Shown piece after piece: positions 7,252 to 63,996 of a stretch of DNA of 64,000 nucleotides. The translations under genes were made by a program, and so were the position numbers. Below the pieces are notes generated by a model that was not told the origin of the DNA, made no database searches, and saw only the letters and a list, made by a program, of their open reading frames with translations. The DNA comes from Eledone cirrhosa (Eukaryota): assembly GCA_964016885.1 (NCBI GenBank), contig OZ024763.1, positions 16,368,001-16,432,000 on the forward strand, written 5' to 3'. The first letter of the stretch is position 1; the number at the start of each line of letters is the position of its first letter.

Positions 7252-7793
7252 TAACCAAATGTTAAACAAGGTTCATTGATTATTCAATGAATATAGTTTT
7301 ACAATAGATTAAAAGCACTCAACAAAGAAGTTTTCTGGAGTTATTAATATTATTCAAAATATTAATAAATGGAGACATTCACGTAATCAAAATATATGTT
7401 TTATTATATATATTTTGGAGGTACTGTGCTGTTTTTTTCAATACGTCCTCATCAGATAAAATACATTGATGTATGACATGCCTCAACTGTGCTGATGGTT
7501 CAATTCCAGTCTTGGTAGCCAAGACTGGAATTGAACCATCAGCACAGTTGAGGCATGTCAGACATCAATTTATGTATTTTATCTGATGAGGACGTACTGA
7601 AAAAAACAGCACAGTACCTCCAAAATATATAAAATAAAACAGTTTCGTTGACAAATATATCAATTTGCCCAGACACGCAGATATATTGCCCTTGGTATGA
7701 CAGTGTGGATTTAGCTCAATGTAGGATAACAATGTATAATAAAACATATTTTTATTACGTGAATGTCTCCATTTATTAATATTTTGAATAATA
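7252..7793. mobile_element. Palindromic HHR element family E (tail 7252-7345, arms to 7793, centre 7517); both HHR cores read CAAAA instead of CGAAA
   Basis: Inverted arms around cttgg-tag-ccaag; ctgatgag at 7583 (+) and its complement at 7449-7455 (-). Confidence 0.8.
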
Positions 7794-7812
7794 TATATAT
7801 ATATTATATATA

Positions 7813-7865
7813 AGGGCAGTGCCCCAGCATGGCCTCAGCCGGATGGCTGAAACAGGTAACAGAGT
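7813..7865 (+). mobile_element. Short SINE 3'-tail fragment
   Basis: gggcagtgccccagcatggcc...tggctgaaacaggtaa resembles an octopus SINE tail recalled from memory; lies in (TA)n. Confidence 0.4.
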
Positions 7866-7954
7866 ATATATATATATACACACAAACAAATATCTCAAAT
7901 AAGGCTCAGAGTTGACATGTAATGTACATTACTGACTAATTATTAAACATATAT

Positions 7955-8414
7955 ATGGTGGCTGCCAACTCGTTTTCGAGTACTGCTACTACTTTATATC
8001 CATGTAGGAGAACCCCTACCGATGCGCTGAACAAGTGTGACTGTTTAGTCCAGCAAGTGACTTGAAAACTCTGGTACAAACACTACACTTGTGACAATTA
8101 TTGACACATAGTGCTGGGCCCATGGTACCATGTGAGGACAAGTGCAGAGATATCTCCAGATATAAAGCAATGCCTGTGCCGTGAAGCTTTTATAGTGAGC
8201 AAAGGCACTGCACAAAGCCAGTCCCACTCTCTTAACCAAGATGATATTTACCAAAAAGAAGAACAAGTCAACATCATTGGATACCATGAGAGTTGCAAGT
8301 GTTATATCAGAGTTTTCCTTCTCCTAGAATTCTGCCTTGACAAAAACTAAGGGGTCATCTCTCCCGGTGATTTTGGATGGCCATTGACTCTTAAGAGCTC
8401 CTTTGCCCTTTGAC
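7955..8414 (-). mobile_element. Non-coding repeat with RTE-5'UTR-like motif, truncated copy
   Basis: Near-identical to 20385-20845; minus strand has ctaggagaaggaaaactctga. Confidence 0.7.
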
Positions 8415-11400
8415 ATATATATATATATACACACAGACTTACATTTGCATATACATATATCTGCATATACACATATTCTTCTATGTATTACTGCACCCAT
8501 ACATACATACACACAAGTGCTTACAAAAGCATACGTATATATACAAAGAGAGAATTATATGTACATATATACACACACATGTACATAGACATGTACCTAT
8601 ACATACACACACACACCAGACTTGTATATATACAAACACATACATACTCATACATACATACATACATACATATACATATATACAGAGAGGCAGATATGCA
8701 AACACACACACACACACTCACACACTCAAACACACACACTCACCCACACACTCACTCACACTCACACACTCAAACACACACACACACACACTCACACTCA
8801 TACACACTCAAACACACACACACTCACACTCACACACCCACACACTCAAACACACACACCCACACACCCAAGCACACACATACACACACTCAAACACATA
8901 CACACTCAAACACACACACACTCACATACTAAAAAAAAGACACACACACTCACACACTCAAACACAGTCACACACTCAGAAACACACACACACTCAAAAA
9001 CACACACACACACACTCACTCACACACTCAAATGCACACACTCACACACTCTCAAAAACACACACACACTCACACACTAAAAACACACAAACACTCATAC
9101 ACTCAAACACACTCATACACATATATATTCATATAAATAACACCTTAATAAAATATTTCATTACCAAATTTAATGATTCTATCTAATTAAGGATTGTTAT
9201 TGTTGTTGTTTTTGGTGTTGGTGTTGTTGTTGTTTTGTTGTAGTTGTTTATAGATTTCTTTTATAATTTTATTTTTCAGTTATATACAGGTGTGGTGTGT
9301 GTGTGATTGTGAGTGTGTGTGTGTGTGATTGTGAGTGTGTGTCAGAGACACTGTGTGTGTGATTGTGAGTGTGAGAGACACTGTGTGTGTGATTGTGAGA
9401 GACAGTGTGTGTGAGAGACACTGTGTGTGTGTGTGTGAGTGTGTGTGAGAGACACTGTGTGTGTGTGAGAGATACTGTGTGTGTGTGAGAGAGACACTGT
9501 GTGTGTGTGATTGTGTGTGTGAGACACTGTGTGTGAGAGACACTGTGTGTGAGAGACACTGTGTGTGTGATTGTGTGTGTGTGTGTATGAGAGACTGTGT
9601 GTGATTGTGTGTGTGTGTGTGTGTGAGACACTGTATGTGTGATTGTGTGTGTGAGAGACACTGTGTGTGAGTGTATGTGCGACTTTTTTGTGTGCACGTG
9701 CTCATCTTTGTGATTGTGTGTTTGTGTGCACACATGCTTATGTGTGTGTGTACACATGTGCTTGTGTGTACACGTGCTCGTGTGACTTTTTTGTGTGTGC
9801 ACACGTGCTAGTGTGTGTGTGTGCACACGTGATTGTGTGTGTGTGTGCACACGTGATTGTGTGTGTGTATGTGCTCATTGTGTGTGTGTGTGTATGTGTG
9901 TGTGTGCACACGTGCTCATGTGTGTGTTTGTGTGTTTGTCTGTGTGTGTGTGCCTGTGTCTTTGTGTGTGTACATGTGGTTATATGCGTGCTGGTATGTG
10001 TGTGTGCATGTGCGACTGTCTGTGCAAGTGTGTGTGTGTGTTCATGTATGTATCTCTATCTCTTTGTATATATATATGTGTGTGTGTGTGTGTATGCATG
10101 TGTGTGCATATGTTTGTGTGTCTACATATGTGTCTGTGTGTGTGTGTATCTACATATGTGTGTGTATGTGTCTGTGTCTACATGTGTGTATGTGTGTGTC
10201 TGTGTGACTACATGTGTGTGTGTGTGTCTACATTGTGTGTGTGTATCTATATATATATATGTGTGTACATATATATATATGTGTGTATCAGTATCTAAGT
10301 GTGTGTGTGTGTATCAGTATCTAAGTGTGTGTGTGTGTATCAGTATCTAAGTGTGTGCGTGTGTATCAGTATCTAAGTGTGTGTGTGTGTATCAGTATCT
10401 AAGTGTATGTGTGTGTGTATCAGTATCTAAGTGTGTGTGTGTGTATCAGTATCTAAGTGTGTGTATGTATGTCTGATTTGTCAGTGTCTAAGTCTGTATG
10501 TATGTGTGTGTCAGTGTCTAAGTGTATACACGTGTGTGTACGTATGTATGTGTATGTATGTGTATGTATGTGTGTGTATGTGTGTGTCTGTGTATGTATG
10601 TATGTATGTATGTGTCAGTGTCTAAATGTATATTCGCGTGTGTGTATTTCTGTATGTATGTGTATGTCTGTATGTATGTCTGTGTATATGTATGTGTATG
10701 TATGTGTATGTATGTGTGTGTCTGTATGTATGTGTATGTCTGTCTGTGTATATGTATGTGTATGTATGTGTATGTATGGATGTGTCCGTGTGTGTGTGTG
10801 TGTGTGTGTGTGGGTGTGTGTATGATGTATGTGTCAGTATGTATGTGTATGTATGTGTGTGTATGTATGTATGTGTCAGTATCTATGTGTGTGTGTGTAT
10901 GTATGATGTATGTGTCAGTATGTATGTGTATGTGTGTGTGTGTGTATGATGTATGTGTCAGTATGTGTGTGTGTGTGTGTGTGTGTGTGTGTGTATGATG
11001 TATGTGTCAGTATGTATGTGTATGTGTGTGTGTGTGTGTGTGTATGTATGATGTATGTGTCAGTATGTGTATGTCTGTAATTTCCCACCTTACCATCCAG
11101 TAACTCATTTCAAAATGTTAATTAAATCTGCTGGCTAACATATAATTAATGTTTCAATGACTGGAATTGTACAACATACAGTATATTTATATATATATAT
11201 ATATACACACATATATATATATGTGTATGTATGTATATATATGTATGTATGTATATATATATATGTGTGTGTGTGTATATATATATATATATATACACAC
11301 ACACACATGTGTATGCATATACACACACACACACACACACACACACACACACACACGCATATATATATATATATACACACACGCATATATATATATATAT

Positions 11401-11480
11401 ACACACACACACATATATATATATATATACACACACACATATATATATACACATATCCACACACTTATACTCACGCACAA
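8415..11480. repeat. Compound (CA)/(TG)/(TATG) microsatellite field with embedded short units (gagacact, atcagtatctaagt)
   Basis: Direct reading. Confidence 0.95.
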
Positions 11481-63130: not shown

Positions 63131-63266
63131 AATAATCATGAGTTTTCATTTTTGTTTTATTTTAATTTTTTTCGATCTTTTTTTTATTTCTCTTGGTTCA
63201 TTTTAGTGTCTCATAGGTTACTTCAGTGTAAATGTCATATATTTGAATATATCTATATATATATAA

Positions 63267-63393
63267 ATGAAGTAATTCCGTCGGAAAGGTCCAGGAAAAA
63301 AGAGTGCTCTATGTAGGTTACAGAGCTTTTGTTTGCTTTTAAGAAACCACTGGTAAATGACATAATTGCCTTATGTTGTTTATTACATAACTA
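63267..63393. mobile_element. Family G fragment: inverted tail joined to the arm 3' part
   Basis: Reverse complement of 13200-13260 followed by a forward match to 13135-13196. Confidence 0.75.
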
Positions 63394-63407
63394 TATATAT
63401 ATCATAT

Positions 63408-63795
63408 ATCATCATCATCATTTTACGTCCGCTTTTTCCCTGCTTGCAAGGGTGGGACGGGAACTGATTCTGGCTTGATTTCTACAGCTGGATGCCCTTC
63501 CTAACACCAACCTCATTTACAGTGAGTGCTGGGTGCTTTTTTGCCATGGCGCCTATGCGTCCACTTTACAGTGAGTGCTGGGTGCTTTTTTGCCGTGGCA
63601 CCTCCACGACCACTTTGCAGTGGAATGATAGGGACCCCAGTCCCTATCATCTCATTTCTACAGCTGAGTAAACTGGAGCAATGTGAAATAAAGTGTCTTG
63701 CTCAAGGAGACAAAACATCACCTGGTCTGAGAATTGAACTCACAACCTTTCGATTGCAAGGCCAATGCTCTAACCACTGAGCCATGTGCCTCCAT
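63408..63795 (-). mobile_element. SINE family 2
   Basis: Matches 53162-53497 with one extra internal unit. Confidence 0.9.
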
Positions 63796-63829
63796 CATAT
63801 ATATATATATATATATATATATATATATA

Positions 63830-63996
63830 GTGGTAGAACACTGGAAGGTAATATCCGTAGTGGTAGAGCACTCAGTCCAAGGGACGAGTTAGGTAGAAGT
63901 GGTTACACAACAGTTAGTTCACCATCCCGAGAACAATTGTTTCTTATCAACGATAACCACTTCTATTTATATATATATATAGTGTAACCACTTCTA
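63830..63996. mobile_element. Family M fragment with short inverted end
   Basis: Matches 55512-55624; taaccacttcta is the inverted copy of tagaagtggtta. Confidence 0.75.

Follow-up and report, generated by a model that had tools for sequence, protein, structure and literature searches.

Insertions of Penelope-like elements (PLEs) typically have a one-sided tail and inverted ends, for which the sole in vitro study found two internal RT start sites and named no duplicated signal in the part of it considered here (PMC11167929). In the window analyzed here, i.e., the whole 64-kb stretch of DNA, the motif GAGYRCT recurs in one-sided tails. This analysis indicated that GAGYRCT forms the 3' strand of a hairpin with a bulge. 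In Hydra-clade PLEs with intact ORFs, two tandem copies of this hairpin stand downstream of the hammerhead and ahead of the start codon and, judging from sequence, it is fairly probable that each copy is an RNA site that makes RT start approximately 6 nt 5' of it.

The motif or its complement was indeed present at 13/13 coordinates where a sequence-only reading had placed it, with or without near variants, in one-sided tails (window letters checked), position 52647-52653 being the variant GAGTACC. It was always in hammerhead sense (13/13 sites), and a two-way palindrome was rejected, as it always points the same way with respect to the hammerhead. In this sense, its first G lies approximately 20-30 nt beyond the short-arm end, in line with the few tens of nucleotides previously claimed, and 41-69 nt ahead of the (TA)n end. 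The hairpin measures 22-35 nt and comprises RCTC, an upper stem-loop that is short, a bulge of 1-2 nt and GAGY, followed by an unpaired RCT. The window features are as follows.

3954-4085, minus strand: additional 26797-family copy, retaining the hairpin's 5' half, then a SINE junction, motif lost.
6490-6910, no strand assigned: exception, a palindromic element with hammerhead; its one-sided extension of 46 nt includes a 6-bp stem and TT, but neither GAGYRCT nor the lower stem.
7272-7291, no strand assigned: outer 8-bp hairpin of the 7314 tail, lineage-specific (z -2.9 vs shuffles).
7314-7341, minus strand: bulged hairpin and motif (ACTC/GAGT, TT bulge, GCT), tail of inverted element 7254-7790; hammerhead cores 7455 (-) and 7583 (+); short end 5-9 nt before the hairpin.
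12372-12394, plus strand: bulged hairpin and motif (ACTC/GAGT, TC bulge), inverted element 11998-12454; hammerhead cores 12268 (+) and 12098 (-).
12395-12454, plus strand: remainder of the one-sided tail, as far as its junction with (TA)n; small hairpin near 12420, folding not above shuffles (z -0.5).
13201-13224, plus strand: hairpin and motif (GCTC/GAGC, TA bulge), inverted element 12507-13258; hammerhead cores 13117 (+) and 12587 (-).
26777-26803, plus strand: hairpin and motif (ACTC/GAGT, TT bulge, ACT), fold-back element 26665-26849.
29722-29746, minus strand: motif with damaged 5' partner strand (no ACTC), element 29660-31290, a relative of the 12372 family.
46240-46305, plus strand: tail-only insertion in (TA)n, starting inside the 3' strand of the hairpin, with no inverted arm of its own; motif 46244-46250.
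46856-46883, plus strand: hairpin and motif (ACTC/GAGT, 4-bp upper stem, TT bulge), fold-back element 46785-46939; short end 8-12 nt before the hairpin, adjoining (CT)n.
47370-47393, minus strand: hairpin and motif (GCTC/GAGC), element starting at 47332; hammerhead core 47492 (-).
52647-52668, minus strand: hairpin and variant motif GAGTACC, fold-back element 52606-52796.
52815-52887, plus strand: tail-only fragment of the 26797 family, broken within the hairpin, with no inverted arm of its own; motif 52836-52842.
55547-55569, minus strand: hairpin and motif (ACTC/GAGT, 1-nt T bulge), inverted element 55513-55840; hammerhead cores 55643 (-) and 55768 (+).
63303-63326, minus strand: hairpin and motif (GCTC/GAGC), element 63266-63391; long arm breaking just 5' of the hairpin.
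63867-63889, minus strand: hairpin and motif (ACTC/GAGT, upper stem GTCC/GGAC, T bulge), element 63830-63967.

An inverted truncated copy with a one-sided extension was found at 7254-7790, 11998-12454, 12507-13258, 26665-26849, 29660-31290, 46785-46939, 52606-52796, 55513-55840 and 63830-63967, and window tails measure approximately 60-95 nt, vs the 30-40 bp usually described for EN+ PLE insertions. Hammerhead cores stand 74-114 nt ahead of the hairpin in 5 of the 10 window hairpins, the other five being truncated short of an intact core. Rfam matched only the tRNA head of a SINE in the window, hammerhead cores not being scored; this tRNA-headed SINE also has GAGTGCT, without the hairpin. The antisense motif resembles tRNA D-arm/anticodon sequence, and several pattern matches in viral contigs look like tRNAs; an origin of the motif from the tRNA D-arm/anticodon was not supported.

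Within the window, the partner strand accompanied 10/13 tail sites and 0/28 other GAGYRCY sites (Fisher p 2.6e-7), and a strict hairpin search requiring neither TA nor hammerhead matched exactly 10 places, all of them tails. A pattern combining hairpin halves, motif and (TA)4 found 10 distinct window places vs 0 in 100 shuffles; as it was derived from these same sites, it is the tests outside the window that carry weight. The 13 sites represent 8 lineages (7314; 12388/29721; 46877; 55546/63866; 26797/52836; 52647; 13218/47369/63302; 46244), whose post-motif tails do not align with one another, so that the signal survives de-replication of the families. The families, although described as unrelated, likely form one clade (Hydra), and are therefore not independent origins. 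The 7-mer is real as a sequence, but the signal itself is a bulged hairpin with covarying stems. In the 13218 group, GAGCACT represents the G-C covariant of GAGT and not the motif in reverse.

A small outer hairpin had also been proposed to follow the motif. It was present at the four places named (7272-7291, ~12420, 29678-29697 and 46906-46924), but a clear excess over shuffles in folding of the post-motif tail was limited to 7314 (z -2.9) and 29721 (z -2.7), with a weak one at 46244 (z -1.9). The other 10 of the 13 window tails did not fold above shuffles, and z fell below -2 in only 1 of 18 outside tails. Shuffle folding of these 13 window and 18 outside tails thus led us to reject the outer hairpin as a general feature and to regard it as lineage-limited.

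The stems of the bulged hairpin covary across 28 hairpins, in a tally that counts sequences rather than independent events. The pair at the base was A-T in 7 and G-C in 21, with zero mismatches, the first upper pair was kept in 28/28 (C-G 15, T-A 11, G-C 2) and the second in 26/28, while the outside loci L159 and L167 displayed a GCAC/GTGC version. Two of the 28 (L062, L068b) came from a search requiring a stem, the 1-nt bulge was set by hand for two, and L070, with a hammerhead-like match at 43 nt, was left out. Pairs were counted by script, MAFFT on 33 hairpins having right-aligned the variable loops, which was useless for structure. G-T vs A-C stem counts were too few to indicate the folding strand. 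In a metagenome scan, a hammerhead lay upstream of 9/104 distinct matches vs 9/1177 control windows; in viral contigs, used as a control, it accompanied 0/41 pattern matches, and two protein scans of these contigs found no relative. In five outside loci, Rfam matches were confined to fold-backs, where they were of microRNA type and due to chance; the hairpins had none. The ACTC/GAGT version was accompanied by PLE evidence in the window only.

Full-length elements carry the hairpin twice, the second copy marking the tail end, a point which the sequence-only reading had missed. Locus L069 has two intact ORFs with Hydra motifs and two hairpins ahead of each. In loci selected by protein, copy 2 was found at -47 to -55 in 5/5 ORF starts having their own upstream sequence; it ends 7-27 nt ahead of the ATG in the ORF starts seen, and the copies are spaced by 57-68 nt in outside loci. 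Downstream of the 13 pLTR hammerheads of the protein-selected loci, an intact hairpin was located at 83-107 nt in 7 and a one-base variant in 1; in the remaining 5, the sequence stops or breaks before or inside the hairpin. The background was 21/1174 windows, true sites included. The single failed first pair among the 13 was a script mis-pairing in L167, and L170 was left out for its weak protein match. A double-hairpin pattern with a fixed, too rigid gap matched 0/170 loci.

These outside loci (L069, L159-L169) are assigned to Hydra-clade PLEs by their protein motifs and matches. Their ORFs show RWK-type and DKT motifs, a CxCX5C linker, as well as, at the C terminus, a GIY-YIG without CCHH flanked by CxxC and CxH; L159-L169 match the L069-type Hydra protein at 46-59%, and L069 and L159 combine a unit of approximately 2.5 kb (<3 kb) with hammerheads and (TA)n ends. 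Pfam left the Hydra ORFs unclassified. Neptune, the first guess, was dropped, as the linked ORFs carry Hydra motifs. No Hydra ORF remnant was found in the window (best tblastn E 0.05), and its families were therefore assigned indirectly: the shared hairpin, its spacing, the (TA)n target and three second-hairpin reads suggest that they likely belong to the same clade. In these 3 reads (one run, this family only), a second GCTC hairpin follows the tail end of the window's own 12372 family, for which genome-wide loose ends into (TA)n behind 12372 were seen in 91 contigs and, within three runs, in 5775 reads and 6 contigs.

The ends of the insertions are positioned accordingly. In 20/21 end pairs, the short end precedes copy 1, and the tail end copy 2, by a distance overlapping 4-8 nt, exactly 6 nt being allowed in 16/21, with pairs picked by eye and a TA ambiguity of up to 8 nt; 21 of 22 pairs were counted, 29721 being left out for its damaged hairpin base. 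The tail is thus copy 1 plus spacer, i.e., the hairpin spacing. The claim of a conserved cis signal is borne out by this fixed distance from the arm end to the hairpin base. Exceptions were noted in L042, where the arm ends 31 nt before the hairpin, and in L166, which has tail sequence at each of its ends. In the insertions generally, the two ends alike meet (TA)n as 3' ends of the element.

From a mechanistic point of view, the folded strand would be RNA, because the stretch copied from an end does not include the hairpin that marks it. The element's own protein may bind the hairpin, reading the bulge and the unpaired RCT, and a nicked (TA)n 3' end would then prime 5' of it, often with a TA-type overlap of 1-8 nt. 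In inverted insertions, one target strand would prime at copy 2, yielding the long arm with the tail, and the other at copy 1, yielding the short arm.

It is unlikely, although conceivable, that the hairpin acts instead in DNA, the GIY-YIG endonuclease recognizing the cDNA hairpin or the near-palindrome GAGYRCTC, cutting approximately 6 nt away and trimming a longer intermediate. A constant cutting distance would indeed yield the same end positions, the tail has been ascribed to endonuclease resolution of an intermediate (Craig 2021, PMC8557442), and, according to earlier work cited in Frangieh 2024 (PMC11167929), recognition by the Penelope endonuclease of Drosophila virilis depends on the tail. 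However, the junction of both ends with (TA)n as element 3' ends is what target priming predicts, and in Poseidon the two ends match the RT start sites determined in vitro (PMC11167929). Moreover, covariation, a pyrimidine bulge and a variable loop are what a single strand that folds would show, and not what is expected of a palindrome in duplex form.

The MS2 operator is an example of a translational operator at a start codon. The location of copy 2, just ahead of the ATG, would suit hairpins that serve chiefly as such an operator or as a packaging signal, with end positions a by-product of where the protein sits, but the distance from hairpin to end is tighter than that from hairpin to ATG, and copy 1 marks the short end far from the ATG, which makes this a doubtful account, somewhat less probable than the preceding one. 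Such a role is compatible with that of RT positioning. It is very improbable that the motif serves the pLTR in promoter function or splicing, with ends merely nearby: an internal promoter and a 5'-UTR intron do occur at the pLTR boundary in Penelope and Chlamys-3 (PMC8557442), but a DNA promoter box does not need compensatory stems, and the duplicated hairpin matches the two ends one-to-one. A functionless motif, inherited or due to chance, has hardly any likelihood, since stems covary while flanking tails are unalignable and the hairpin recurs in loci chosen by protein alone, even though the motif was defined from these tails and the families probably share ancestry.

Under the preferred reading, in which each hairpin starts RT, a more tentative extension, which we hold somewhat less likely true than false, is that a dimer of the Hydra PLE protein spans both hairpins on one RNA, one subunit on each, and primes both nicked (TA)n strands together. 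If so, one step would suffice to produce the insertion typical of PLEs, in which a tailed long arm faces a short inverted arm, hairpin spacing would set tail length, and the sister group of telomerase would possess, in this hairpin, a minimal and portable RNA module for RT positioning. In divergent Hydra elements, the two copies of the 22-35 nt hairpin predict, to within a few bases, where each end lies. The hairpin also offers a tag for Hydra-type remnants without an ORF, and pinpoints exact mutations for testing with intact ORFs such as those of L069.

Among known systems, the Poseidon PLE of Anolis (PAc) has its tail between two internal RT start sites in vitro, with both target strands cut and extended (Frangieh 2024, PMC11167929); its start site is not homologous to the cut DNA, and RNA to +172, well past the tail, is required (PMC11167929). 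Both systems share a tail that is the interval between two alternative 3' ends, an upstream hammerhead, an AT-rich target and a stem-loop near the start site. By contrast, PAc starts in a stem-loop that is AC-rich and lies inside the ORF, has a tail of 30-40 bp, and no duplicated signal is named for it in the part of the report considered (PMC11167929), whereas Hydra-type elements have a covarying bulged hairpin twice in the 5' untranslated region, putative starts just 5' of each, tails of approximately 60-95 nt, and ends showing TA overlap with the target.

The outside loci resemble the described Hydra clade in ORF motifs, hammerhead and (TA)n targets (Craig 2021, PMC8557442). Inspection by eye of its 6 new consensus sequences identified the hairpin in 3/6, Hydra-1_Ajap carrying it twice at the 5' end; Hydra-1_Crog has variants, Hydra-1_Amil stops at the short end, and Hydra-1_Obim (Octopus) showed no clear copy. 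The word "hairpin" does not appear in the main text of that paper, and none of its five passages on the "tail" names a motif. As to Naiad and Chlamys, in a search for the literal motif only, five heptamers occur 67 times in its whole supplement, and among the matches listed, the first 6 per heptamer, none was a terminal hairpin by eye. The hairpin is absent from the Neptune-type L168 (linker and CxxC motifs) and from window element 46957-47266, both of which may be short ends. The hammerhead upstream of the tail is of the same type as in known PLEs, but the hairpin is separate, 74-114 nt downstream of the hammerhead start, and unmentioned in the portion of the hammerhead literature considered; no description of a duplicated hairpin in PLEs was found in the literature searched.

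The hepadnaviral epsilon stem-loop and the telomerase RNA elements beside the template are small bulged stem-loops that position an RT on its RNA. The present hairpin displays no demonstrated sequence likeness to them and no Rfam match; it differs in being duplicated and in that priming would be from target DNA. PLE RTs are nevertheless sister to telomerase RTs (PMC8557442), and the hairpin thus offers a possible parallel to the positioning of telomerase on its RNA.

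The window is animal DNA rich in microsatellites, and short insertions sit between its (TA)n runs, each made of two inverted arms of which one carries an extra stretch; minimal hammerhead cores are frequent in them. The motif GAGYRCT, which the sequence-only reading had placed in their one-sided tails, was indeed present at all 13 sites listed for it, spelled GAGTGCT, GAGTACT, GAGTACC or GAGCACT in the hammerhead sense. It lies about 20-30 nt beyond the end of the short arm and 41-69 nt before the tail end. The sequences that follow it form 8 lineages with no alignment between them, and the signal thus survives de-replication. 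The outer terminal hairpin was found at the four places where that reading had named it, but it does not hold as a general feature, since only 2 of 13 window tails folded clearly better than shuffles (1 of 18 outside tails had a folding z below -2).

A high-copy tRNA-headed SINE also carries GAGTGCT, without a hairpin.

tRNA-headed SINE copies in the window
3702-3954: tRNA-headed SINE
14942-15243: tRNA-headed SINE
25790-26111: tRNA-headed SINE
46315-46657: tRNA-headed SINE
53162-53503: tRNA-headed SINE
63403-63796: tRNA-headed SINE

SINE copies often adjoin insertions of the Penelope-like elements (PLEs), and a 47-nt unit is repeated about 7.6 times within a SINE-related copy (56008-56366). 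At 63860-63873 (+), the tail antisense resembles a tRNA D-arm stretch that leads into the motif, probably by chance.

In the PLE tails, the motif is part of a bulged hairpin. An RCTC located 15-21 nt upstream pairs with GAGY, enclosing an upper stem-loop together with a 3'-side bulge of 1-2 nt, while the RCT after the motif stem is unpaired. This partner strand was found at 10 of 13 tail sites versus none of the 28 other GAGYRCY sites of the window, SINE copies included; the tail sites lacking it are broken inside the hairpin (46244, 52836) or damaged (29721). A strict hairpin-only search of the window returned exactly 10 matches, every one in tails. Among 28 hairpins from the window and outside loci, counted as sequences and not as independent events, the upper-stem pairs, from the first to the fourth, formed in 28, 26, 22 and 15 respectively, and the base pair of the lower stem was A-T in 7 and G-C in 21; the set includes two hairpins from a search demanding the stem, and for two a bulge of 1 nt was assigned manually. 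The lower stem is compensated as GCAC/GTGC in L159 and L167, two outside loci. In the 12372 family, variable sites within the hairpin lie in the loop and bulge and none in stems or motif, among the 40 of 91 variable sites listed. Energy modelling favours a continuous, bulge-free 7-bp stem in the 13218 group.

The position of element ends was mapped on 22 hand-picked pairs of an ending and a continuing copy, reduced to 21 by leaving out 29721. The breakpoint range overlapped 4-8 nt before the hairpin base in 20 of 21 pairs, comprising 15 of 16 short ends before the first hairpin (copy 1) and all 5 tail ends before its tandem repeat (copy 2); exactly 6 nt was compatible with 16 of the 21. The exception, L042, ends 31 nt before the hairpin. 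At most junctions, element and target have 1-8 alternating T/A letters in common. For the 12372 family, three public runs contain loose ends that pass into (TA)n behind 12372: 91 contigs in X1, 5775 reads in X11 and 6 contigs in X5. Beyond the tail end, three reads enter a second hairpin that begins with GCTC. At L165 1042-1110, a full-length element meets (TA)n with its 5' end exactly at the base of copy 1.

Outside sequences were sought in metagenomes with a pattern of hairpin halves, motif and (TA)7, over about an eighth of the collection. This yielded 118 loci and 104 distinct matches, the majority of which are due to chance; a hammerhead core lay within 150 nt upstream in 9 of the 104 (8 of these at 88-107 nt) versus 9 of 1177 control windows (p 2.9e-6), and in none of 41 viral matches. 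One locus, L069, holds two intact ORFs bearing the Hydra-clade motifs given in Craig 2021 (PMC8557442), each preceded by the hairpin twice, with copy 2 starting immediately beyond the position at which the downstream pLTR gives way to (TA)n. The two elements (L069 1-5552) differ, with 49% protein identity, and their tails face each other across a single (TA)n run.

Hairpin duplication was tested on loci fetched by protein alone, without the motif. Twelve come from contigs within prokaryote assemblies, probably host contamination; L159-L169 are animal-type PLEs on contigs of GTDB prokaryote assemblies, where contamination by host DNA is most likely. Among 13 pLTR hammerheads adjoining a Hydra ORF, 7 had an intact hairpin 83-107 nt downstream, and an eighth, in L167, had a variant differing by one base. 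In the remaining five, two copies terminate at the short site, one terminates immediately beyond the hammerhead, one is interrupted within the hairpin and one runs into the end of its contig. Copy 2 lay at -47 to -55 in all 5 ORF starts with their own upstream sequence, the sixth start abutting an inverted copy, and the two copies were 57-68 nt apart in five elements. By eye, the published consensus of Hydra-1_Ajap (supplement of PMC8557442) has two copies at its start, before the ATG, Hydra-2_Amil and Hydra-2_Ajap have one at the end, Hydra-1_Crog has variants, Hydra-1_Amil terminates at the short end, and no clear copy was found in Hydra-1_Obim. A literal search showed no motif enrichment in Naiad or Chlamys consensus sequences, and no Hydra ORF remnant was found within the window. 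A duplicated, covarying hairpin marks each of the two alternative ends of Hydra-type PLEs, and the earlier interpretation of the motif as a cis signal is in part supported and extended to this hairpin.

Other features were noted in the window. About 47 copies of a 26-nt unit (29942-31157) occupy the exact inversion junction of element 29660-31290, and the unit derives from that element's own arm sequence; another tandem array (48560-50260) has about 14 copies of a 123-nt unit at 97% identity. An L1/Tx1-like non-LTR ORF (21764-24916, family assigned by eye) is interrupted by a single stop codon (23441-23443), and 60552-61196 is a related 3' fragment. Two hammerhead-like elements without the motif (46957-47266 and 13285-13510) end in (TA)n, the former resembling the hammerhead of a Neptune-type element in L168.

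From a mechanistic point of view, PMC11167929 reports cleavage and extension of the two target strands by purified Poseidon PLE protein, with reverse transcription (RT) starting at a pair of internal sites on either side of the tail. If element ends are likewise RT starts, each Hydra hairpin would lie just 3' of one start on the RNA and be left uncopied from it; the hairpin therefore most likely acts on RNA, as a putative protein-binding site setting the register. Recognition of a DNA form of the hairpin by the endonuclease appears unlikely, a translational or packaging role more doubtful still, and a promoter or splice signal highly improbable. With an RNA-level action, the long arm and its tail would result from priming of one target strand at copy 2, and the short inverted arm from priming of the other strand at copy 1. 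Fragments breaking at or inside copy 1 (46240, 52815, 63266, L165, L166, L169) would fit a bound protein blocking RT started at copy 2. Against a simple two-start model stand L166, with tail sequence at both ends, and element 6490-6910, which lacks the motif; the Poseidon study (PMC11167929), where no homology of start site to target was found, also counts against it.

The tail, two start sites, hammerheads and the Hydra clade were already published. We found no description of the hairpin or its duplication in full-text searches of openly available papers, in word searches of PMC8557442 and of the abstract and passages of PMC4209133, or in the portions covered of bioRxiv 10.64898/2026.07.22.740005, and the text covered of PMC11167929 names no duplicated signal. 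In their overall architecture, the window insertions share with known PLEs, as described in PMC8557442, the inverted truncated copy and the one-sided tail.
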